A DNA stretch of 36,897 bases from Archaeoglobus sp. (GTDB lineage Archaea; Halobacteriota; Archaeoglobi; Archaeoglobales; Archaeoglobaceae). Under the pieces are notes generated by a model, which saw only the letters and a program-made list of their open reading frames with translations, had not been told where the DNA came from and made no database searches. Position 1 is the first letter of the stretch; the number at the start of each line of letters is the position of its first letter. The position numbers and the translations under genes are program-made. The stretch spans positions 1 to 36,897 of the forward strand of contig QNXS01000078.1 in assembly GCA_003978865.1 (NCBI GenBank). Direction: 5' to 3'. This document shows positions 18,160 to 29,938 of the stretch, piece by piece.

Positions 18160-18230
18160 GCCAGGGTGGCAGAGGGGCTATGCGGCGGACTGCAGATCCG
18201 CTGACCCCGGTTCAAATCCGGGCCCTGGCT
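18160..18230 (+). tRNA. tRNA-Cys (GCA)
   Basis: Manual cloverleaf: acceptor GCCAGGG/CCCTGGC, anticodon arm GCGGA-CUGCAGA-UCCGC, T arm CCCGG-TTCAAAT-CCGGG, discriminator U. An oligo-T run lies at 18244-18249. Confidence 0.9.
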
Positions 18231-18240: not shown

Positions 18241-18423
18241 CTCTTTTTTCGCATTCCGATCCCTGTTATAATGTTTGGTTATTGAAGGGAAAGAAGAAAA
18301 AACGGGACTGATAAGTTTTTAGGATAGATTTTCAGCGTTACGTTTTCCTCAATTTAAGCTACGATTATTGTGGCAATTATCAGGAGCACAGCAAGATTCT
18401 GCTTGTACTTCAAAATGAAAAGA

Positions 18424-18462
18424 ATTGAACAGAAAATTTAAGTATTGCTAAATCAATCAACT
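18424..18462 (+). promoter_or_regulatory. promoter block (TATA-like TTTAAGTATT) of the Csa3-like gene; twin of 26051-26089
   Basis: Ungapped alignment to 26051-26089 gives 33/39 identities. The TATA centre lies about 27 nt before ATG 18468, which implies a leaderless mRNA. Confidence 0.5.
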
Positions 18463-18467
18463 GTTTG

Positions 18468-19208
18468 ATGCCAGCAACGCAGATAGTTTTCGTCGGTCAT
18501 CACAAGGAGAGGCTTGTAGAGTCCATCAGAGCACTGAGAGAGTTACCAGCAACCAAAGTTATTCTTGCTATTGGTGAAGAGGAGCTTCCAGGAGAAAGTA
18601 AAGTTAGAAAGATTGCGGAGGAAATAAGGAAAGAGATTGAAACAGTATGGGATGTCGAAACACGAAAAATCAACAAGAGAAACGTGATAAAAGCGGTATC
18701 ACAGCTCATCGAAATAATAAGGAGCGAAAAACAGCAAGGAAGAGAAGTTGTGATCAACGCCTCCGGATCACTGAGAACTCTTGCAATAGCCGGCTACATC
18801 GCCGCATGCGTAACTTCATCGAGAATTTTTACATCCATTCCAAGATACAACGAGAAGGAGGAGGAAGTGGGTATCGAAGAGATTATTGAAGTTCCAACGC
18901 TGCCCGTAGATTTTCCCGGTGAGGAACAGGTGGAGATAATCTCCTCCATAGGCAATGGCGTTGAATCGCTCGACGAGCTTATACTCAGGCTAAATCCGGG
19001 AATAAGCAAGGGAAGTAGCGAGTTCAGAAGGGAGAGGAGCAGATTGAGCCATCATTTGGCGAAGCTTGAAGATGCTGGTCTGGTTAAAAAGGAGAAGCGT
19101 GGAAGAAATGTGGGGATAGTTCTAACTCCTCTCGGCAGATTTTTGCTGGAAGGTGTTGTTTATGGGAAGGAAGTGGATGAAAAGAAGGCTCTTGAAGAAG
19201 TACATTGA
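18468..19208 (+). CDS. Csa3-like regulator: N-terminal CARF-type Rossmann domain + C-terminal winged HTH
   Basis: IVFVGHHKERL..., VVINASGSLRTLAIAG (compare the Csa3/cas_HTH pattern vNlSGGmR), and wHTH RSRLSHHLAKLEDAGLVKKEKRGRNVGIVLTPLG. Confidence 0.6.
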   Translation: MPATQIVFVGHHKERLVESIRALRELPATKVILAIGEEELPGESKVRKIAEEIRKEIETVWDVETRKINKRNVIKAVSQLIEIIRSEKQQGREVVINASGSLRTLAIAGYIAACVTSSRIFTSIPRYNEKEEEVGIEEIIEVPTLPVDFPGEEQVEIISSIGNGVESLDELILRLNPGISKGSSEFRRERSRLSHHLAKLEDAGLVKKEKRGRNVGIVLTPLGRFLLEGVVYGKEVDEKKALEEVH

Positions 19209-19423
19209 GGATGTGCCGAATGTTCCGGGAGTTTACGAGATTCTGATGCCAAACTCGACTATTTACGCGGGAAAGTCACTGGGAGATGGACTCCTTGATC
19301 ACTTCGGAAAGTTCAGAGGTATTTTAGTGTTCGTACTTTAGAGTTCGATTTATGCCACCCAAAGCGGAGAAGGTTGAAAACAAGATAATAAGGAAGAAAA
19401 CCAACAACGAGAGGATGTGGTGA
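19177..19423 (+). pseudogene. small GIY-YIG-type nuclease domain gene, apparently frameshifted
   Basis: Frame 1 reads VPGVYEILMPNSTIYAGKS...LLDHFGKF and then stops at 19341. A second frame continues SYFRVRFMPPKAEKVENKIIRKKTNNERMW*. Together these resemble GIY...YIG...H...E...N. It overlaps both neighbours. Confidence 0.35.
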
Positions 19424-20955
19424 CTGTGAAAATAACAGTTTACGACGGAGCAACAACCATAGGTGGTAACAAAATCTATGTTGAGGAGAACGGTAAGGGA
19501 GTTTTTCTCGATTTCGGCATGAACTTTGCAAAATACAGCAAGTACTTCACCGAATTTCTGAGCGAAAGGAGTGTAAGGGGGATACACGACCTCATTCACC
19601 TCAATCTCATACCGAAGCTCAATATCTACCGATCAGACTTGATACCCTCAGACCTTGACATGTCTTTCTATCCTAAACTCAACGTGGAGGCTGTTCTGTT
19701 AAGCCATGCGCACGTTGACCACTGCGGGAACATAGCTCTGCTTAATAAAAGCATACCCGTCGTGGTATCTCCAATGAGCATGGCGATTCTTAAAGCTATG
19801 AGGGATGTTTCTGCATCGGGAATGGAGATTGCCTACTTCTCTCCAAGAACTTCTGGAAATGATGAAAGAATACTGATTTCTGAGAGGACGAAGCCGTATA
19901 AGGGTAGGGACTTTATATGTACAAACAAAATATCGGACAAGCTTGCTGAATTCATGTGCTATAAACCGGGGCAGGAGAGTAAGAATGCAAAGAAGCTCGT
20001 TCCCGGAAAGATCTGCCATGTAAGTAATCACAGCCTTTCCTTTGACATCGATGCCTACGAAGTGGATCATTCCATCTACGGTGCTACAGCTTACATCCTG
20101 CGGAATGATTTGGCCATAGCATATACAGGCGATATAAGGATGCATGGAAAGCATGCAGAGAGATCGAAGGGGTTCGTGAAGAAAGCAAAGGATGCGTCTG
20201 TTCTGATTGTAGAGGGGACAAGGACAAGCAGAAAGGAAGATGTTGACGAGTCCGAAGAGATTGCCTTTGAAAACTGCTTGAAGGCTGTTGAAGAATCTAA
20301 GGGGCTTGTTATAGCCGATTTCTCGCCGAGAAACTTTGAAAGGCTTGAGACCTTCATCGAGATTGCGAAGAAGACTTCGAGAGAGCTTGTTGTAACAGCA
20401 AAAGATGCGTACATGCTCCACGCCGTGGAGTGTGTTGATGGGATTTGTAGGATGGAGAACGTGGGAATATATCATGAGCTTAGAGATAAGAGGAACAAGT
20501 GGGAAGAACTTGTTGTCAGGAAGAGGTGGGAAGAGAAATATGTTGACCCTTCTGACATTTCGAGAAATCCCGAGAACTACATACTCTGTTTCTCCTTCTA
20601 CGACATGAAGCATTTGCTGGACATCAAGCCAAATGGTGGGTCCTATATCTATTCATCAAGCGAGGCGTTCAGCGAGGAACAGGAGTTCGATTTTCAAAGA
20701 CTGTACAACTGGCTGCAGGAATTTGGGTTGAGAATTTACGGATTTGAGATGGTGCTGGAGGGAGGAAAGTTTGTTCCGAGTTTCATCAGAGGTTATCATG
20801 CATCAGGACATGCGTCGAAGAGCGATTTGAGGTGGATTATTGAGCAAGTTGATCCCGATGTCATCATTCCGGTGCACACTGAGAATCCGGAGTGGTTTGT
20901 GGAGAACTTTGAGAATGTTGTGGTTTTGGGGGATGGAGAGAATTTGGAGGTTTGA
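19417..20955 (+). CDS. RNase J-like metallo-beta-lactamase / beta-CASP nuclease
   Basis: N-terminal ITVYDGATTIGGNKIYVEENGKGVFLDFGMNF, HxHxDH (SHAHVDHCG), VDHSIYGA, AYTGDIRMHG, and C-terminal GYHASGHASKSDL...IIPVHTE. Confidence 0.75.
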   Translation: MVTVKITVYDGATTIGGNKIYVEENGKGVFLDFGMNFAKYSKYFTEFLSERSVRGIHDLIHLNLIPKLNIYRSDLIPSDLDMSFYPKLNVEAVLLSHAHVDHCGNIALLNKSIPVVVSPMSMAILKAMRDVSASGMEIAYFSPRTSGNDERILISERTKPYKGRDFICTNKISDKLAEFMCYKPGQESKNAKKLVPGKICHVSNHSLSFDIDAYEVDHSIYGATAYILRNDLAIAYTGDIRMHGKHAERSKGFVKKAKDASVLIVEGTRTSRKEDVDESEEIAFENCLKAVEESKGLVIADFSPRNFERLETFIEIAKKTSRELVVTAKDAYMLHAVECVDGICRMENVGIYHELRDKRNKWEELVVRKRWEEKYVDPSDISRNPENYILCFSFYDMKHLLDIKPNGGSYIYSSSEAFSEEQEFDFQRLYNWLQEFGLRIYGFEMVLEGGKFVPSFIRGYHASGHASKSDLRWIIEQVDPDVIIPVHTENPEWFVENFENVVVLGDGENLEV

Positions 20956-20957
20956 CT

Positions 20958-21482
20958 ATGCATTTGTGTGAAGGGAGGTCATTTGTAATAGTGGTATCTA
21001 GGATTTTGAGATATGATGGATGTAAATCTGAAAATAAGGGAGATATTACATTATTCGAAGGGATACTCAACAATTTTAAAAAGAATCACGAACTAAAATT
21101 TGAAGACCGTACTGGAGCACTTTTTGAAGTTCAATATTCTATGGTTAGTTCAGATTCCAAGGGATTTCTTTTAATATGTCTAAACCAATACGGAATTCCA
21201 TTCATTTTTGTTGCTCAGGATCTCATGTATCCCTTTTACAGAGTTGAAATTATAGAGGAAGACGTCAGGAAAACAAAGAACCACGTAATAAAACTATTGA
21301 GGGACTCCATACTAAAAGAATTCAAAGATACATGCGAAATTAACAATCTTCAACCTGAGGTTCTTGGATGCTCCTCTTTCACTGGATTTACTTGGATCAA
21401 TTCCAGAAAGGTAGGTCAAACGAGTATACAAATTCATGTTGCAATACTGTATCGGAAAAGCTTTAAGAACAAAGGTGTTTGA
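20958..21482 (+). CDS. hypothetical protein with no motif I recognise (orphan)
   Basis: GGAGGT lies 7 nt before ATG 20958. The start region abuts the beta-CASP stop (TGA 20953-20955). The mcrB-like gene follows 31 nt downstream. Confidence 0.55.
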   Translation: MHLCEGRSFVIVVSRILRYDGCKSENKGDITLFEGILNNFKKNHELKFEDRTGALFEVQYSMVSSDSKGFLLICLNQYGIPFIFVAQDLMYPFYRVEIIEEDVRKTKNHVIKLLRDSILKEFKDTCEINNLQPEVLGCSSFTGFTWINSRKVGQTSIQIHVAILYRKSFKNKGV

Positions 21483-21513: not shown

Positions 21514-23754
21514 ATGGGTGATTTAAAATTAAGTGATGTTTTTAGGAAATTGAAGGAAAAACACGAGGAAGAATGGAAATCAGTAGAAGAAGAATTCATA
21601 GAAAAAGTTGATGAAATAAGAAACTTCGTAATTGAGAAGGTTAAGAGAGGGGCTTTGTTTACTGAAGAGGATGCGGAAAAAATATTAAATTTGTCCAAGA
21701 ATGTGCCTGAAGGATCTAAGTTTCTTCTTAGGTTCATTGGTAGCGTAGGTGGTGACAAGAAGCAAGTAATCGTGAATCTTCTATCTAATGAGTATTTTTC
21801 AAAACTTATTGAAGCATTAGAAAACGAAAAACATGAGGATATTAAAGCTATGGTAGAAAAAATAATCCAATCGACATATAATGTCAAATATACTACCTTA
21901 ACAACCTGGTTGGCCATCTTTAAACCGGATTTATTTATGCCAGTTTGGGGATTTGAAAAAGAGATGGGAACTCTACCTCAAAGTCTTCTGAAAAGGTTTG
22001 ATGAATTAAATAAGTTCAGAAAATGGTGGGATCTTAGAGTTAACAAATTTTTTGATCTGTTACAGATTTTGAGAACGACAGCAAATAGTGTTGGAGTAGA
22101 GAATATGTTTGAAATGGCATTCTATCTCAACAAGTATCTAGAAGATAAATTAAATGATAGTAACACAACAAAGAGATTCTGGCTAATAGCACCAGGAGTG
22201 GGAGCAGAGTACTGGAATACTTGCGTTAATAGAGGTATAATTTGTGTAGGTTGGAGAAAGGCTGTAGAAAAGCTTGGCAAAGAAATATTTGAGATTGAGG
22301 ACGAGGAGTCATTCAAGAAAAGGGTGAGGAATGAATTTAATTATGGCGACTCTCACGAGCTGTGGAAATTTTTAAAGGAGATATCTGAAGGAGACATTGT
22401 CTTTTCAAAAAGGGGAATGAAAGAAATAATAGGAATTGGTATCGTCGAATCTGAACCATCAATAGACCTTGAAATGAAGTATCCAATTTATAGAAAAGTT
22501 AAGTGGTACAAAATTGATCTTAGCCTAGAATCGCCAAAACAGTTTAGTGGGGCAGTTGCTGAACTCAGGAGAGAAGAGATAGAGGAAAATTCTGAATTAA
22601 AGAAATTAATAGATTCAGTGATTTGTGAAATTCAAAAGGATTTGGAAATAAGTCTGATACTCGAATCCAAAAAGCAAATCATCCTCTACGGTCCTCCTGG
22701 CACAGGAAAAACAAGGTTGGCAAGAAATTATATTGAAATAAGAACTAACCGAAATAGAAAATTTTACGAGTTTGTCACTTTTCATCCATCCTACTCTTAT
22801 GAAGAATTCATCGAAGGACTCAGACCAATTCCAGCTGAGAACGGTGTAAAGTACGTGGTCGAAGATGGGATTTTCAAGAGAATGGCAATAAGAGCGATGT
22901 GTGAAGCTATCAGGTGGCAGAACCTAGATTTGAATCTTGCGAAGTCTGCAGAAAAACTGCTCAAATTGCTTAACGAAATAGAGAGCGGAAAAATTGAAAG
23001 GTACGACGAGTACTACGACAAGTACAACGAAGCGAAAAGAGAGTTGTGGCAGTATCTCGAAATGTGCGACAAAGAGAAAGTTAAAAAATTCTTCAAGAAC
23101 GCTCAACCGTTCTACATCCTGATCGACGAGATAAACAGAGGCGACATCTCAAAAATCTTTGGCGAACTTATAACACTACTTGAAGCAGATAAAAGACTCT
23201 TCGCTGAAAACGAGCTGACGGTGATCCTCCCATATTCAAAAACGAAGTTTGGCATCCCACCCAACCTCTACATAATCGGCACTATGAATACAGCGGACAG
23301 GAGCATAGCATTGATTGACATAGCTTTGAGAAGGAGGTTTGGATTCATCGAACTCATGCCAGACTACGACGTTCTCAGAAGAAAGCTGATTAAAGAAGGA
23401 GATGAAGCAAAAGACATTAAAGAACTTGCAATTAAAGTTCTTCACGCCTTAAACGAGAAGATCAGAAAGCTCTACGACAGAGATCACCAGATCGGGCACA
23501 GCTACTTCATCAAACTGGAGGATTGTAAATCAAAAGATGATGCGATTGAAATGCTAAAGCAGATCTGGTTCTACGAGGTTATTCCTCTACTCCAAGAATA
23601 CTTCTACGACAGCCCGGAAAAGCTCAGCGAAATCCTCAAAGACTTTGTCAGTGTATCTGATGACTCGTACGATTTCAAGAAGATTGATGATTTCACGGAT
23701 GAAGAGTTCGAGGATATATTGAGAAAAATAGCCGGTGAGAGCAGTGGTCAGTAA
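21514..23754 (+). CDS. mcrB: McrB-like AAA+ GTPase with a ~390-aa N-terminal extension
   Basis: Walker A LYGPPGTGKT, McrB signature FHPSYSYEEFIEG, Walker B FYILIDEINRGD, GTMNTADRS, LRRRF. GAGGAG SD upstream. The N-terminus is a helical module followed by an EVE/PUA-like segment (RFWLIAPG...GDIVFS...IIGIGIV). Confidence 0.85.
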   Translation: MGDLKLSDVFRKLKEKHEEEWKSVEEEFIEKVDEIRNFVIEKVKRGALFTEEDAEKILNLSKNVPEGSKFLLRFIGSVGGDKKQVIVNLLSNEYFSKLIEALENEKHEDIKAMVEKIIQSTYNVKYTTLTTWLAIFKPDLFMPVWGFEKEMGTLPQSLLKRFDELNKFRKWWDLRVNKFFDLLQILRTTANSVGVENMFEMAFYLNKYLEDKLNDSNTTKRFWLIAPGVGAEYWNTCVNRGIICVGWRKAVEKLGKEIFEIEDEESFKKRVRNEFNYGDSHELWKFLKEISEGDIVFSKRGMKEIIGIGIVESEPSIDLEMKYPIYRKVKWYKIDLSLESPKQFSGAVAELRREEIEENSELKKLIDSVICEIQKDLEISLILESKKQIILYGPPGTGKTRLARNYIEIRTNRNRKFYEFVTFHPSYSYEEFIEGLRPIPAENGVKYVVEDGIFKRMAIRAMCEAIRWQNLDLNLAKSAEKLLKLLNEIESGKIERYDEYYDKYNEAKRELWQYLEMCDKEKVKKFFKNAQPFYILIDEINRGDISKIFGELITLLEADKRLFAENELTVILPYSKTKFGIPPNLYIIGTMNTADRSIALIDIALRRRFGFIELMPDYDVLRRKLIKEGDEAKDIKELAIKVLHALNEKIRKLYDRDHQIGHSYFIKLEDCKSKDDAIEMLKQIWFYEVIPLLQEYFYDSPEKLSEILKDFVSVSDDSYDFKKIDDFTDEEFEDILRKIAGESSGQ

Positions 23755-25075
23755 TATTGCAACACTTTTCGAATACGAGTCAGTGGATTACGAAATTAGG
23801 GATAAGGATGATGCTATATATGAAGATGGCAAAACAATTCTCTCTCTAACTGAAAAGACGATGGAAGAACTCGAAAAGCTCAACGAAACCAGAAAGTTCA
23901 TCGAAATCACTCGCAGAAAATTAAAACCGCTGAACTACGTTGGAGTTGTCAAGACTGGCGGGATAACACTGGAAATTTTTCCCAAATTCGTAACCGACAG
24001 AAGAGGCAATGCAGATCTGTCAAAAAAGGATATAATAGCCAGAAATCTCCTGAAAATGCTTCAGTACACCCACACGGTAAACATCAGGGAAATCGACTAT
24101 GCCAGTATCTTTAAGGAGAGGCACAGCTTTTTCGAGGTGTTCATCAGCATTTTCGCCAAGAACCTTCTTTCACTCCTGAAGTGCAGGCAGAACAGAGAAT
24201 ACATGAGAAAATACGACGAGCTCAGATTTATAAAAGGCAAAATAGACTTCAGGAGATATACAAATCCGGCGAGACTCCACATAATACCATGCACCTACCA
24301 CGAAAGAGCGGCTGACAACATTATCAACAGAACTTTGAAGTACACAGCTTACCTTATGTCCAGAATTGTAGAAGACAGAGAGAACTACAGAACTCTCCGC
24401 AGAATACTTGATTTACTCGATCCCGTAACTCTTATGCCCGTCACACTTCAGCAGGTTAAATCAATAACCTTCAACAGACTCAATGCCGATTTTAAACCCT
24501 TTATAGACATCTGCAGGATATTTCTCGAAGGTTCAACGCTAACGCTGCAGGCTTCCACCGTTGAAACTTTTTCACTGCTAATTCCGATGGAAAGCTTGTT
24601 TGAACAGTTTGTTGCCGGTGTTATCCAGCGTGAAGAACTGCATAGAAAAGTTTTTGATAGTGGTGCGGAGTTAAAAGTACAGGAATCAATAGGCTACCTC
24701 ATAGAAAAGGATGGGAAAAAATTGGCTGAAATGAGGCCGGATATCATCATCAAGGTTGGTGACGAGAAGGTCATCATCGATACTAAGTACAAGCTTCTGG
24801 ATCCGGAAGACAAGAAGTTCGGCGTTTCACAGCAAGATCTCTATCAGATGTACGCTTATTGTAGAGAAATCAACGCCAGAAAGGCTCTGTTGATATATCC
24901 AGAAGGGCTAAACAAAATTAATGAGATTGGCATAAAAACTCCATTCAAAATGGGTAAGAATAGAGATATAGAACTTTTTGTAAGAACTATTTCCTTGGAG
25001 TACGACTTAACTAACGAGGGCTTTGCAAAATTTGTTAACGGCTTAAGAACAATACTTTATGAGCTGAAGGGTTAG
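23735..25075 (+). CDS. mcrC: McrC-like PD-(D/E)xK nuclease subunit
   Basis: Overlaps the mcrB-like stop by 20 nt. C-terminal MRPDIIIKVGDEKVIIDTKYK (D...D-x-K) and QQDLYQMYAY are typical of McrC. Confidence 0.8.
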   Translation: MRAVVSNIATLFEYESVDYEIRDKDDAIYEDGKTILSLTEKTMEELEKLNETRKFIEITRRKLKPLNYVGVVKTGGITLEIFPKFVTDRRGNADLSKKDIIARNLLKMLQYTHTVNIREIDYASIFKERHSFFEVFISIFAKNLLSLLKCRQNREYMRKYDELRFIKGKIDFRRYTNPARLHIIPCTYHERAADNIINRTLKYTAYLMSRIVEDRENYRTLRRILDLLDPVTLMPVTLQQVKSITFNRLNADFKPFIDICRIFLEGSTLTLQASTVETFSLLIPMESLFEQFVAGVIQREELHRKVFDSGAELKVQESIGYLIEKDGKKLAEMRPDIIIKVGDEKVIIDTKYKLLDPEDKKFGVSQQDLYQMYAYCREINARKALLIYPEGLNKINEIGIKTPFKMGKNRDIELFVRTISLEYDLTNEGFAKFVNGLRTILYELKG

Positions 25076-25161
25076 GTCTCCAGATGCAGGTGAAGCAAGA
25101 TTTATGGAGTCTGGTTAGCATAAGAGCAAATGTATTAACTTCGAGTTCAAACAGTAAATCG

Positions 25162-25420
25162 ATGACTGACGTAACCATCTCAATCCCGCAAGATTTCGCG
25201 AGAGTTCTCGGAGTGAGGGTGAAAGAACTTCCCAGACTCGTCAAACTTTACCTTGCCTGAACTCTACCGGGAGGGGAAGATTAGCATGGGCAAAGCTGCT
25301 GAAATAGCGGAGATCAGTAAATGGGAAATGATGGAAGTTCTGGCATCGAAGGGCATCTCTCTGCAGTACGATGAAGACAATCTGAGAGAGGGTGTTGAAA
25401 CGCTGGAGAAAGTGTTATGA
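25162..25420 (+). pseudogene. UPF0175-family antitoxin, frameshifted
   Basis: MTDVTISIPQDFARVLGVRVKELPRLVKLYLA* runs in one frame. Another frame reads LPELYREGKISMGKAAEIAEISKWEMMEVLASKGISLQYDEDNLREGVETLEKVL*. The junction is near 25250-25260. Confidence 0.6.
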
Positions 25421-25900
25421 TTGTCGCTTCAAACTCAAACCCCTTGATCATACTGGCAAAAATAGGGAAGCTGGACATTATAAGGGAGCTTTTTGGTCAA
25501 ATAATAATTCCAAGGATGTCTGGGTAGAAGTTATTGAAAAAGGTAGGGGAAGCCTGGAGCGGAGGAAGTTGAAAAAGCCAGTTGGATTAAAGTAGATGAT
25601 GTTAAAGACAAACTGAGTGTCGAAATCTTAAAAGGCGAAGTTGAGGTTGGCGAAGCAGAAGCAATTGTTTCTTGCAAGAGAATTAAATGCTGATCTCCTC
25701 ATTATGGATGAAAGAATTCCGAGAATTATAGCCAAATCTCTTGGCCTGAAAGTTGTGGAAGACTGGCGATTCTGAACATTGCAGAGAAGAAAGGGTTGAT
25801 TGAAGAAGAATTCGATGAGCTCGTAAAAGAACTCAGACTGAAGAGCATCAGATTCAGCAATGATATACTTGAGAAACTCAGGCAGATGTATGGTGAGTAG
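25417..25900 (+). pseudogene. DUF3368 (PIN-like) toxin, multiple frameshifts
   Basis: ATGA overlap with the antitoxin. Pieces lie in different frames: MIVASNSNPLIILAKIGKLDIIRELFGQIIIP / KDVWVEVIEKG / WIKVDDV...VGEAEAIV / NADLLIMDERIPRIIAKSLGLKVV / ...LRQMYGE*. Confidence 0.6.
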
Positions 25901-26050
25901 ATACCGGAAATTGTATATTTTTCAATCCTAAGCTCGATTGAATCTCAAAATTAGTGAAGATAAAAATGGATGGATGGACAGGCAGTTCTGGTTTAAGAAA
26001 GCGTATAATAAAAGCCTTCGGAGACTTGAACGTTTGACGCGTTAATAAAA

Positions 26051-26089
26051 ATTGAACAAAAAATTTAAGTATTTATGATCCAATCAACT
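26051..26089 (+). promoter_or_regulatory. promoter block of the CARF gene; twin of 18424-18462
   Basis: ATTGAACAAAAAATTTAAGTATT-N8-AATCAACT. The TATA centre lies about 26 nt before GTG 26093, so the track start ATG 26075 would sit inside the TATA region. Confidence 0.5.
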
Positions 26090-26092
26090 ACA

Positions 26093-26569
26093 GTGAAAGC
26101 ATACATCACAATCCTCGGCCGCTCTGTATGGGCTCTCATCAACGCGTACTATGCAGTTTTAGCTGAGAAAGCGTACTATCCTGACATAGTTTACATCTTT
26201 GCAGAAGACATCTACGCAGACCAGCTTGGCAGAGCAATAAAAGGCATAGAAATCCTATCAGAGGAATTCGGTTTCAAGCCTGAAATCAGGCAGGAAATTG
26301 TCAGAGAAGCTGATTTCGTTGAAGCTGTGTTAAAAATTACATCCTTAATCAAAGACCTCAAGCAAAATTATAAGATAGCTATAGACATAACGCCCGGCAG
26401 AAAAGCACTTGTTGCTGGGGCTCTAATCCCCATCACAAAAATAGGTGTTGACCACGTTTTCTACTTGGCAATCAAAACGCTCAACAACGTATCAAAGCCA
26501 TACAAAATGATTCCACTTTCAATTCAGGAGCTCAGAGACTTCGTTGAGGATGCCAGAGTTATGAGGTGA
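26093..26569 (+). CDS. stand-alone CARF-type sensor domain protein
   Basis: KAYITILGRSVWALINAYYAV (beta1-helix) and DITPGRKALVAG (the CARF D-x-T/S-x-G-x-K/R loop). It has no effector domain. The track start at 26075 is an alternative. Confidence 0.55.
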   Translation: MKAYITILGRSVWALINAYYAVLAEKAYYPDIVYIFAEDIYADQLGRAIKGIEILSEEFGFKPEIRQEIVREADFVEAVLKITSLIKDLKQNYKIAIDITPGRKALVAGALIPITKIGVDHVFYLAIKTLNNVSKPYKMIPLSIQELRDFVEDARVMR

Positions 26570-27579
26570 TGCCAGTGAGTGAAGTAGTCGTTTCAAGAGA
26601 TGAACTGCAAATACTTCTCAACATGGAGAACGAGATCAGCATAATGTATCCATTCTACAAGCACTTCCAGCTGCTGACGGCAAAGCCGGAAGAAGATGGA
26701 TACAGGTTGAAGGTTTTTGTTGGTGAATATGATTTTGACAGAGAGGTGGAGCGATTTGACCACTTTGCTTTAGAGATGCCCGGTTATGCGGACTTCCTTG
26801 AGTGTCTGGTAGCAGGAATTCTGAAGTATAAAAACGAGAAGGACTTCATAGAGAAACTCAAGCACTACAGAAGTATGACAAAGAGGGTCTACTTCTGCCC
26901 CGACACTAACGTAATCTACCATCGATTCATCTCGAACTCTTCCCTTTTTAAGCAGAACGAGGTTTTGCTCGTCGATACTGTTAAGAAGGAGATCGAGGCT
27001 GCCCTTAACTACAAGTACAATCCTCATCAAATCTCCGAGCTCAAGAACCTTGTAAAATATCAGAAGTTTCTGCTCGACGAGTGGGTGAACAAGCGCATGA
27101 AAAAATCGAGAAAAGCAGCGTACATCGCTTTGAGAGAGTACAGAAAGGTGAGAGATCTGGCTGTGGAGATTGAAAGCATAGAGAAATCAACAAGAGACAG
27201 CGAGTATAACGACAGGATAATCATTAAATCCGTCAGAAGGTTCGAAAAAGAAAGAAATGCACTGCCAGTTTTGCTGACTGCAGACGTATCGATGGTAGAC
27301 ATCTGCGAGCTTGAAGGTGTTGAATACTTTCTATTTGAGTATCCCCATGTTATAAGTGCAGATTACTGCAATGCTGAACAGATGCTCGAGCTCGTTTACT
27401 GTCTTGCTGTTGTTTTCGGCGTCATCAGACTCAATTCGACTGTAGTTTTTGGAGAGTTCAGGGGGAAAAGCAGGCACGAGGAGCTGAAGTTGAGATTTCT
27501 TGATGAGAATATGGTTGAGGAGTTTGAAAGGGATCTGAGAACATGCAGGAAACTGATGGCTCTGGGGATAGAAAAGTAG
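26566..27579 (+). CDS. PIN-domain nuclease with a ~105-aa N-terminal domain of unknown type
   Basis: Acidic PIN positions occur in order: YFCPDTNVI, KKEIEAAL, NDRIII, LLTADVSM. GAGGTGA lies in the CARF stop region, and GTG 26575 is the likely start. Confidence 0.6.
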   Translation: MMPVSEVVVSRDELQILLNMENEISIMYPFYKHFQLLTAKPEEDGYRLKVFVGEYDFDREVERFDHFALEMPGYADFLECLVAGILKYKNEKDFIEKLKHYRSMTKRVYFCPDTNVIYHRFISNSSLFKQNEVLLVDTVKKEIEAALNYKYNPHQISELKNLVKYQKFLLDEWVNKRMKKSRKAAYIALREYRKVRDLAVEIESIEKSTRDSEYNDRIIIKSVRRFEKERNALPVLLTADVSMVDICELEGVEYFLFEYPHVISADYCNAEQMLELVYCLAVVFGVIRLNSTVVFGEFRGKSRHEELKLRFLDENMVEEFERDLRTCRKLMALGIEK

Positions 27580-28250
27580 CCAGAAAGATAAAAGCAGTGG
27601 TATTTGACATGGACAACACCCTATTCGACTTTGTCGAGGCGAAGCTGAAAGCATGTAGGGCTGTTGTTGAATACTTGGGAGTTGGAAGCGAGGAAGAGTT
27701 GCTGAAGTATTTCTTGAGAGGAGTATACGGATTTGAGGATTTAGAGAACATTGCAGACTACATGCGTGATAATGGAGTTTATAATCAGGAGAAGTATGAA
27801 GAATGTTGTAGAATATACGAGGAAGTTAAGCTCGAAAGTATTGAGCCTTACCCTCACGTGAAAGAGACCCTCGAGAAGCTAAGAGGTATGGGCTTGAAAC
27901 TCGCAGTCGTTACGGATGCGCTGAATGGACACGCTTTAAGCAGACTGCGCAAAGCTGGTTTACTGTATCTGTTTGATGTTGTGGTTTCAGCAGACATGAC
28001 GGGCAAGAGGAAGCCAGAGCCTGACTCCATAAAACTGGCTTTGCAGAAGCTTGGGGTTGATGCGAAAGAAGCTATCCTCGTTGGGGATAGCGTAAGACGA
28101 GACATAGAAGCAGGGAAGAAGCTTGGAATGCTTACTGTTTATGCTGCTTATGGTGACAGGAACTTCTTCGAGGATAAGAGCGGGGAGGCGGACTTTACTA
28201 TTGAGGGTATTTGGGAACTGGTTGGGTTATCCAATCAGCATTCTAAATAA
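27543..28250 (+). CDS. HAD-superfamily phosphatase (subfamily IA-like)
   Basis: Motif I VVFDMDNTLFDF, motif II LAVVTDA, motif III KRKPEP, motif IV LVGDSVRRDIEAG. It overlaps the PIN gene end by 37 nt. Confidence 0.8.
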   Translation: MQETDGSGDRKVARKIKAVVFDMDNTLFDFVEAKLKACRAVVEYLGVGSEEELLKYFLRGVYGFEDLENIADYMRDNGVYNQEKYEECCRIYEEVKLESIEPYPHVKETLEKLRGMGLKLAVVTDALNGHALSRLRKAGLLYLFDVVVSADMTGKRKPEPDSIKLALQKLGVDAKEAILVGDSVRRDIEAGKKLGMLTVYAAYGDRNFFEDKSGEADFTIEGIWELVGLSNQHSK

Positions 28251-28892: not shown

Positions 28893-29938
28893 TCACCTTT
28901 TCAGACCTCCTTCTTCCTTATTTTCAAACAATCTATCTAAGGGACTTTTAGTCCTGAGTATATCCTTGTTACTCACATGAGTATAAATTTCTGTTGTTTT
29001 TGAGCTTTTATGCCCTAACAATTCCTGAATGTATCTCAAGTCCACCCCGCTTTCCAGTAAATGCGTTGCAAAGCTATGTCTTAACGAATGAACACTAGCT
29101 TCTTTCCCTATGTTTGCTTTTTCACAGGCTTGCTCAAAAATTGCCTGAACTGTTCTCGTAGTTATGTGCCTTCCCGGCTTAGCTCCTGTGAACAGCCATT
29201 TTTGTGGCTTAAATTTCTGCATATACTTATTTAACATACCTAAAGCCACTTCTGAAAGCATCGTGTATCTATCTTTCCTTCCCTTTCCACCTCTTATTCT
29301 GATCAGCTTTCTTTCCACATCAATATCCTCAACTCTGAGCCTAACAACCTCCCCAACTCGTAATCCAGCAGAATACATGAGCATTAAGATCAGCCTGTGT
29401 TTGATGTTGGTAATCGATGATAAAATCCTTGAAACTCTTCCTGACTCAAAACGACAGGAAGCTTTTTGTCTTTCTTCGGCCTCTTTATTTCATAAACAAA
29501 TTTCCGCTTTAGCACTTCACCGTAGTAAAACTTTAACGCATTGATTGCTATGTTCAGAGTTGAAGCCGAAGCATTCTTCTTTTCCGCTAAATGATACAGA
29601 TAATCTCTCACATCATCATTTGATATCTGATATGGCGTTTTTCTACTGAATCTCAAAAATTCTTCATTGTAATGCAGGTAAAGCTTTACCGTTCTTCTGC
29701 TGTACTTTCTTGCCATCAGTTCTTTCTCAAGTTTGTAAAGCCAGATGGATGTGTCCACCTCAACCTTTTCTCCATCAAATGCTGACAAAAGATTCTTCAA
29801 TTCTGAGTAAGGAATGCTCCAGTATTTCCTATCAGGATGCCATCTGTAGCCTTTAACAGTTTTAATTTTTGCAATGTAGTCTAGATTGTACGGGAATTTG
29901 ACTATAACGACATCTTTGTCTCCCTCAATTCTTATCAT
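28893..29938 (-). pseudogene. tyrosine recombinase/integrase (XerC/D-like), split by a 1-nt frameshift
   Basis: N-terminal SAM-like domain ORF (29390-29938) and catalytic ORF (28893-29384: AGLRVGE, HSLRHSFATHLL, LLGHKSSKTTEIYTHV). The catalytic frame extends upstream as RILSSITNIKHRLILMLMY, and the frames meet at about 29432-29440. Confidence 0.8.

Follow-up and report, generated by a model that had tools for sequence, protein, structure and literature searches.

A twice-used promoter block as a candidate operator of a Csa3-like CARF regulator in Archaeoglobi nuclease islands

Two near-identical copies of a short promoter block occur in a 36,897-nt (36.9-kb) stretch of DNA from Archaeoglobus sp. 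(GenBank assembly GCA_003978865.1, contig QNXS01000078.1), to which we refer as the window and in whose positions all block coordinates are given. Block 1 (18424-18462) directly precedes the gene of a Csa3-like regulator, which combines a CARF domain with a winged helix-turn-helix (wHTH), and block 2 (26051-26089) that of the stand-alone CARF protein CARF_m1. With a probability of roughly 60%, we favor a reading in which the block is the autoregulated operator of the Csa3-like factor, which would also co-control the neighboring nuclease and CARF-PIN operons, making the block a complete regulated promoter of an island regulon specific to the Archaeoglobi. This reading builds on the repeat itself, on its conservation and fixed geometry, on the restricted set of genes behind it, and on the fold of the regulator.

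Sequence, geometry and specificity of the block

The initial annotation of this DNA had aligned block 1 (ATTGAACAGAAAATTTAAGTATTGCTAAATCAATCAACT) with block 2 (ATTGAACAAAAAATTTAAGTATTTATGATCCAATCAACT) at 33 of 39 identical positions without gaps, and our re-alignment reproduced this match exactly; a repeat finder lengthens the pair to 43 nt (18420-18462 versus 26047-26089) at 84% identity (36/43). In an all-against-all self-comparison, the two blocks are the top same-strand 39-nt pair of the window, and the best 39-nt pairs in eight dinucleotide-preserving shuffles of the window reach only 28-29 identical positions. Searched with as many as three mismatches, the 23-mer core is confined to these two sites, against an expected number of 0, and a weight matrix derived from homologous blocks scores both at 58 bits, with the runner-up in the window at -8 bits. 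The repeat is real and well past chance.

Both copies lie on the plus strand and share one anatomy, an inverted repeat A(G/A)TTGA-N28-TCAACT around an A-rich transcription factor B recognition element (BRE) and the TATA box TTTAAGTAT. Counted from the first base of its left half-site, block 1 spans 18423..18462, with the left half-site AATTGA at 18423-18428, the A-rich BRE-like stretch at ~18431-18436, the TATA box at 18437-18445 and the right half-site TCAACT at 18457-18462; in block 2 (26050..26089), the corresponding left half-site, TATA box and right half-site occupy 26050-26055, 26064-26072 and 26084-26089. The half-sites are reverse complements of each other, lie 34 bp apart from center to center on either side of the BRE/TATA, and are placed at about -45 (left, adjoining the BRE upstream) and -9 (right) relative to the predicted transcription start. 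The flanks of the block thereby show the dyad symmetry and fixed spacing that are a mark of operators.

The position of the block relative to the coding sequence is equally constrained. The ATG of the csa3-like gene (18468) follows block 1 after 5 nt and the GTG of CARF_m1 (26093) follows block 2 after 3 nt; the mechanical open reading frame (ORF) start of the latter, ATG 26075, lies inside block 2, and we place the start at the GTG because homologues either start there or have in-frame stops upstream. The center of the TATA box (TTTAAGTA) precedes the start codon by 27.5 nt in block 1 and by 25.5 nt in block 2, leaving no space for a Shine-Dalgarno sequence. As this is the usual TATA-to-start distance in archaea, transcripts are predicted to begin at the start codon or within 2 nt of it, and the csa3-like and CARF_m1 mRNAs of the window are predicted from their sequence to be leaderless. 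The initial annotation had come to the same prediction, which agrees with the distances in homologous loci: TCAACT and the start codon are separated by 3, 4 or 5 nt in 26/26 csa3-like genes, where the start is hence ~26 nt away from the center of the TATA box, in all genes for small PD-(D/E)xK proteins and in 5/9 CARF_m1 genes. In GIY-YIG and RmuC genes, this distance is 12-13 nt, and a GGTGA Shine-Dalgarno sequence precedes the start. A literature search for transcription-start maps of Archaeoglobus returned none.

That the flanks belong to the element, and not merely to its two copies in the window, emerges from scans of larger collections. A first scan, covering one genome per species (185,579 species) with the pattern AAC-N6-TTTAAGTA-N7-10-AATCAACT, yielded 37 loci, of which 14 with 15 sites are of Archaeoglobi type; TTG, which the pattern left unspecified, precedes AAC in 15/15 of these sites versus 1/23 bacterial or other loci. 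A second scan, of metagenomes, was anchored in the left half and TATA alone (TTGAACRAAANNTTTAAGTAT) and returned 78 unique sequences, with TCAA at the exact offset of 34 in 49 of them and TCAACT in 33, nearly all other offsets having two TCAA or fewer. The two upstream bases that this pattern left open are AG in 28 sequences and AA in 11, which completes the AGTTGA/TCAACT inverted repeat. As the unselected flank recurs in either scan, each flank is conserved independently. The proposal of the initial annotation that the flanks constitute a shared operator is thus strengthened by conservation that does not depend on the TATA box and by the inverted repeat, with the binding itself being a prediction.

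Altogether, public genomes and metagenomes supplied 67 distinct copies of the block, essentially all of them at Archaeoglobi-type loci, and all copies found precede island genes; no housekeeping gene with the cassette was found in the window or in ~90 fetched loci. Together with the wide gap in matrix score between the two blocks and the rest of the window, this sets the block apart from a generic promoter consensus, which the initial annotation had named as the finding that would speak against a shared operator: window and collections alike point to Archaeoglobi-type islands and a restricted set of genes. We also considered a viral origin of the cassette, which we reject because no true copies were found in 2.9 million viral contigs. 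There, the relaxed pattern TTTAAGTATT-N5-8-AATCAACT had 39 matches, none of them with the left half-site and all hence due to chance, and the left-half pattern had a single match, lacking the right half. An island of Archaeoglobi type (MBL, for metallo-beta-lactamase, McrB, DUF2357, block, CARF_m1, PIN) also stands in the loci L077 and L112, labeled 'Thermoplasmatales archaeon JdFR-43', which suggests mis-binning of this contig or transfer of the island.

Conservation at orthologous promoters and the genes behind the block

The csa3-like homologues were retrieved via the protein, hence without bias toward the motif, and 5/6 of the Archaeoglobi loci found in this way have a complete block. They range from 95% amino acid identity of the Csa3-like protein in L001 over 86% in L002, where the spacer is 3 nt shorter, 69% in L005 (A. 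sulfaticallidus PM70-1) and 65% in L084 (A. fulgidus DSM 8774) to 56% in L182. The intergenic DNA around the block is unalignable between csa3-like loci, and the block flanks are conserved beyond neutral expectation at these orthologous promoters. Block 2 has its own orthologues, upstream of CARF_m1 in L005, L061, L076, L094, L103, L131 and L133; in A. sulfaticallidus, the blocks thus occur at the same two genes as in the window, csa3-like and CARF_m1 of a CARF_m1-PIN-HAD operon.

The csa3-like gene, located behind 26 of the 67 blocks, is by far the commonest class. CARF_m1, with PIN and HAD genes after it, stands behind at least nine blocks, GIY-YIG/DUF7508, followed by RmuC and MBL, behind five to six, small PD-(D/E)xK proteins (Hjc/Mrr-like) behind five, and RmuC directly behind two. 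Further block-driven genes encode a DUF7664-AGOG-DUF6884 fusion, an RNase_H_2/PolB-exo-like exonuclease, an LMWPc-like protein, HerA-like ATPases and NurA. Where the csa3-like gene has the block in front of it, it can be the first gene of a NurA-HerA-Mre11-Rad50 operon, as in A. fulgidus DSM 8774 (L084, 9958-17314), L126, L090, L144 and L146. It overlaps the start of this operon in several Archaeoglobi, and in L143, which has lost the csa3-like gene, the block is found 66 nt before NurA. The islands contain one to three blocks (three in L164) and follow a conserved order, csa3-like, (GIY-YIG, RmuC), MBL, variable cargo, CARF_m1, PIN, HAD, (PD-(D/E)xK), in which the cargo may be McrBC, McrB-DUF2357 or TPR genes and the sole DNA-binding protein conserved across islands is the Csa3-like one. 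The initial annotation had tentatively joined the McrBC-type array and the CARF-PIN module into one regulon; the shared block speaks for this connection, but the regulon extends further, to repair and recombination nucleases, and McrBC turns out to be variable cargo of the csa3-like operon.

The Csa3-like regulator is encoded at 18468..19208 on the plus strand and comprises 246 residues. It is a member of the DUF6293/HFX_2341 family, with Pfam matches to HFX_2341_N (8e-15), the DUF6293_C winged helix and HTH_5; PF19810 (55.7 bits, cut-off 30) and PF22665 (35.4 bits, cut-off 27) exceed their gathering scores, and the same domains (HFX_2341_N, DUF6293) recur in a hundred homologues. PADLOC assigns it to CARF3 (2e-110) and matches it to CasR/Csa3 models too. 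Its AlphaFold (AF2) model, with a predicted local distance difference test (pLDDT) score of 88, forms three helices and a beta-wing over residues 152-219, and the best Foldseek matches are Csa3 (2WTE and 6WXQ, from S. solfataricus, the latter with cyclic tetra-adenylate, cA4) and the CARF-wHTH ring nuclease Sis0811. The sequence NASGSLR, conserved among the homologues with S101 and R103 invariant, we take to be a CARF-like signature and a candidate nucleotide-ligand site. As CARF_m1 (26093-26569) in turn matches the PADLOC model CARF_m1--CARF at 2e-63, the assignment of both downstream genes to the CARF type, made by the initial annotation from the sequence, is corroborated. For both CARF proteins of the window, an exact-protein look-up gave no match, so that homologues were used in their place, and a PDB sequence search gave nothing significant. 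The neighborhood of type I-A or other CRISPR-cas genes typical of Csa3 is absent, with neither cas genes nor a CRISPR array in the window or the orthologous loci examined.

A possible mechanism and its alternatives

How might the block work? As its binder, we consider the Csa3-like CARF-wHTH protein, the product of the gene after block 1, the likeliest candidate. Seated on both half-sites, it would occlude the TATA-binding protein (TBP), transcription factor B (TFB) or RNA polymerase and so act as a negative autoregulator; such an exclusion is to be expected of half-sites that lie between the TATA box and the start and abut the BRE. Its CARF domain could bind a nucleotide signal, for example a cyclic oligoadenylate, upon which the regulator would release the DNA or switch, thereby inducing the CARF-PIN effector along with the nuclease operons. 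We favor such ligand-relieved repression over activation because of the placement of the half-sites and the repressor behavior of HFX_2341. The regulon would then comprise the csa3-like gene with its followers (GIY-YIG, RmuC, MBL, McrBC or NurA-HerA-Mre11-Rad50), the CARF_m1-PIN-HAD operon, the small PD-(D/E)xK genes and other DNA-processing genes.

The closest analogue is Csa3a of Sulfolobus, whose promoter palindrome is found at cas genes for adaptation, at CRISPR leaders and at the promoters of nurA/herA/mre11/rad50 and of further repair genes (PMC5587795, PMC7515695). Common to both are the combination of CARF and wHTH, Csa3 being the top structural match of the modeled window regulator, and a palindromic promoter motif that defines a small regulon with operons of the nurA/herA/mre11/rad50 type. 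The window regulator, however, belongs to another sequence family (HFX_2341_N/DUF6293), lacks a linkage to cas genes and is probably a repressor, whereas Csa3a is described as an activator. The Csa3a motif CAPPa is moreover a compact palindrome, TCCC-N8-GGGA, 12 bp upstream of the BRE (PMC8699464), to which the block, with its half-sites 34 bp apart around the BRE/TATA, is unrelated in sequence. Within its own family, the only studied member is HFX_2341 ('Crr') of Haloferax mediterranei, a repressor by genetic evidence, the binding sites of which are stated as not known (PMC11434293). It shares the Pfam family (PF19810 and PF22665), the chromosomal location and the lack of a CRISPR link, but the haloarchaeal protein acts globally on transport and metabolism genes, in contrast to the compact, island-local nuclease and defense regulon with a defined candidate operator proposed here. 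A conceptual parallel is provided by bacteria, in which RtcR-like CARF-HTH proteins lead McrBC/CoCoNuT superoperons and have been proposed to switch them on in response to a nucleotide signal (PMC11090510): there, too, a CARF DNA-binding protein occupies the 5' end of a same-strand McrBC-type cluster. The bacterial proteins are, however, sigma54-type CARF-ATPase-HTH activators, as opposed to an archaeal CARF3-wHTH protein with a TATA/BRE promoter and an operator repeated on several operons.

The operator of the window can also be set beside those of other archaeal regulators. Archaeal repressors such as Phr, LrpA, MDR1 and TrmB bind over or just past the BRE/TATA, usually at single compact palindromes, and autoregulation is common among them. 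As with these, the candidate operator overlaps the core promoter, from the TATA box toward the start site; it differs in having two half-sites that flank the BRE/TATA. A literature search found no earlier description of the block motif or of its regulon.

Several observations weigh against an operator of the Csa3-like factor. L181 (64% identity of the protein) has kept its left half-site and TATA box but not its right half-site, the lineage of L002-L004 has a half-site spacer shortened by 3 nt, and L101, L116 and L129, to which the window is most closely related, lack a block before CARF_m1. A spacing of 34 bp is also much wider than that of CAPPa and calls for a pair of dimers or a strong bend in the DNA. 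The connection between protein and motif is one of association, since the block was not found with DUF6293 homologues outside the Archaeoglobi (from Methanocalculus, one further lineage and a Promethearchaeota bin), in spite of a nearly invariant putative recognition helix. In the related Csa3a, DNA binding in vitro has been called non-specific by one group (PMC8699464). Finally, distant regulon members or copies outside the islands may exist, given that the weight matrix was run on the window and the larger collections were scanned by pattern. The broader proposal of an operator common to the whole DUF6293 family we reject, for the reason that the three homologues named above lack the block. 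In the Promethearchaeota bin (L183), the region ~620-675, 5' of a DUF6293 gene of 49% identity, contains AATTGAATAATTGAAAAAAAGTTTTAAGCAT, which resembles a duplicated left half-site with a TATA box at an equal TATA-to-ATG distance and has no right half-site.

With the association between protein and motif in mind, the block could be a regulated operator whose binder is encoded elsewhere, as another transcription factor or a dedicated TFB or TBP paralogue, the csa3-like gene being a mere member of the regulon. The homologues outside the Archaeoglobi that have the recognition helix and lack the motif would fit this explanation, as would L143, where the block drives NurA after deletion of the csa3-like gene. 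Yet the csa3-like gene is the most frequent gene behind the block and encodes the only DNA-binding protein that the islands have in common, and autoregulation usually marks the cognate factor, so that we regard a foreign binder as unlikely. A dedicated regulator might also be dispensable altogether, if the block were a strong basal promoter (BRE, TATA box and initiation region) that recombination had spread from one island gene to the next and that was retained because it is strong. This would agree with the BRE/TATA core being the most invariant part of the block, with the truncated copy of L181, and with the shuffling of cargo between genomes, which renders a capture within the island plausible. 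Archaeal basal promoters need nothing beyond the BRE and TATA box, however, whereas the block also preserves two mutually reverse-complementary hexamers, near -45 and -9, with a constant distance between them, and the cassette is absent from the housekeeping genes of the window and the fetched loci; we therefore consider a purely basal promoter quite improbable.

One could finally view the two blocks as direct repeats of a mobile element, that is, as attachment (att)-like sites or cassette boundaries around the 7.6 kb that hold the csa3-like gene, McrC and all between them. Direct repeats do flank variable defense cargo here, with a tRNA-Cys gene 190 nt before block 1 and a split integrase at 28893-29938. 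But the block stands at a fixed 3-5 or ~12 nt before a start codon in dozens of genomes, always with the TATA box at promoter distance, and often occurs singly or in triplicate; the integrase is not enclosed by the two repeats, and the viral contigs contain no real copy. As an att-like duplicate of the tRNA-Cys end was not found either, we rejected this reading, the likelihood of which we consider marginal.

Island setting and significance

The window is an ordinary piece of Archaeoglobaceae chromosome, with genes for aIF2-alpha, L21e, RpoF/Rpb4, Pus10, adenylate kinase, SufBD, LeuA and cytochromes, and homologues are from Archaeoglobus, Geoglobus and Ferroglobus. The island within it lies between the tRNA-Cys(GCA) gene (18160-18230), ~190 nt upstream of block 1, and the tyrosine integrase at its far end, which is split into two ORFs on the minus strand, a catalytic part (28893-29384) and a SAM-like N-domain (29390-29938). 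As the chromosomal neighbors of the island vary between genomes, the island may be, or may once have been, mobile.

Behind the csa3-like gene, a series of tightly packed genes continues on the same strand. A small GIY-YIG/DUF7508 nuclease gene (19162..19420) is frameshifted, with tblastn matches in two frames and homology resuming in the second from ~19328; it is intact in relatives, at 91 residues in L001. It is followed by a gene of the metallo-beta-lactamase/RMMBL nuclease type (19417..20955), the conserved partner of the csa3-like gene, by an ORF of 176 residues without a family match (20952..21482), and by McrB (21514-23754) and McrC (23735-25075); this McrBC segment (21514..25075) is variable cargo, which other genomes have between their conserved modules. 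The ~1-kb, nominally intergenic stretch before block 2 (25116-25998) has 86% DNA identity to L076/L139, and part of it has 83% identity to a UPF0175 and DUF3368 (PIN-like) pair of A. sulfaticallidus; the stretch probably represents the decayed remains of a toxin-antitoxin-like pair.

The genes behind block 2, likewise on the plus strand, have overlapping ends. CARF_m1 (26093..26569, 158 residues) is followed by its split partner, a PIN-domain protein (26566..27579, Pfam PIN_4), and both ORFs of 26093-27579 match the PADLOC model CARF_m1--CARF_PIN, as a split CARF-PIN effector. The third position of CARF_m1-PIN operons is without exception taken by the gene of a HAD-family hydrolase (27543..28250 in the window), which overlaps the preceding PIN gene at the 3' end of the latter; the hydrolase may act on a nucleotide signal. 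Among block-driven genes of other genomes, those for LMWPc-like proteins have a conserved hairpin, GCGGGCAGG-N18-CCTGCCCGC, at the predicted 5' end of the transcript (L084 5901-5937, L154, L176, L150, L109, L138), with a compensatory change in L150 (GCAGGCAGG / CCTGCCTGT). The hairpin has no match among Rfam families and may be a regulatory element of the 5' untranslated region.

What would an operator of the Csa3-like factor mean for the physiology of the Archaeoglobi? In a far-reaching version, which we put forward tentatively and hold to be rather doubtful, the DUF6293 Csa3-like protein would be the master switch of an inducible, SOS-like DNA-break and defense regulon, in which a nucleotide messenger frees the AGTTGA-N28-TCAACT operators and thereby co-induces NurA-HerA-Mre11-Rad50, RmuC, GIY-YIG, MBL, the Hjc-like nuclease, AGOG, McrBC and CARF-PIN. 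This would parallel the role of Csa3a in the Sulfolobales, in another archaeal phylum. More generally, CARF-wHTH regulators are thought to couple nucleotide signaling to expression, and sequence-specific targets have been established, and disputed, only for Csa3a/b of Sulfolobus. For the DUF6293/HFX_2341 family, which is widespread in archaea, the block offers a first candidate binding site and a first candidate regulon, and, occurring at one to three promoters per island across the whole class, it makes both directly testable. The genes behind it suggest that end resection by NurA-HerA-Mre11-Rad50 is co-controlled with defense nucleases in the Archaeoglobi, which bears on how archaea, in which LexA is absent, regulate their responses to DNA damage and infection.

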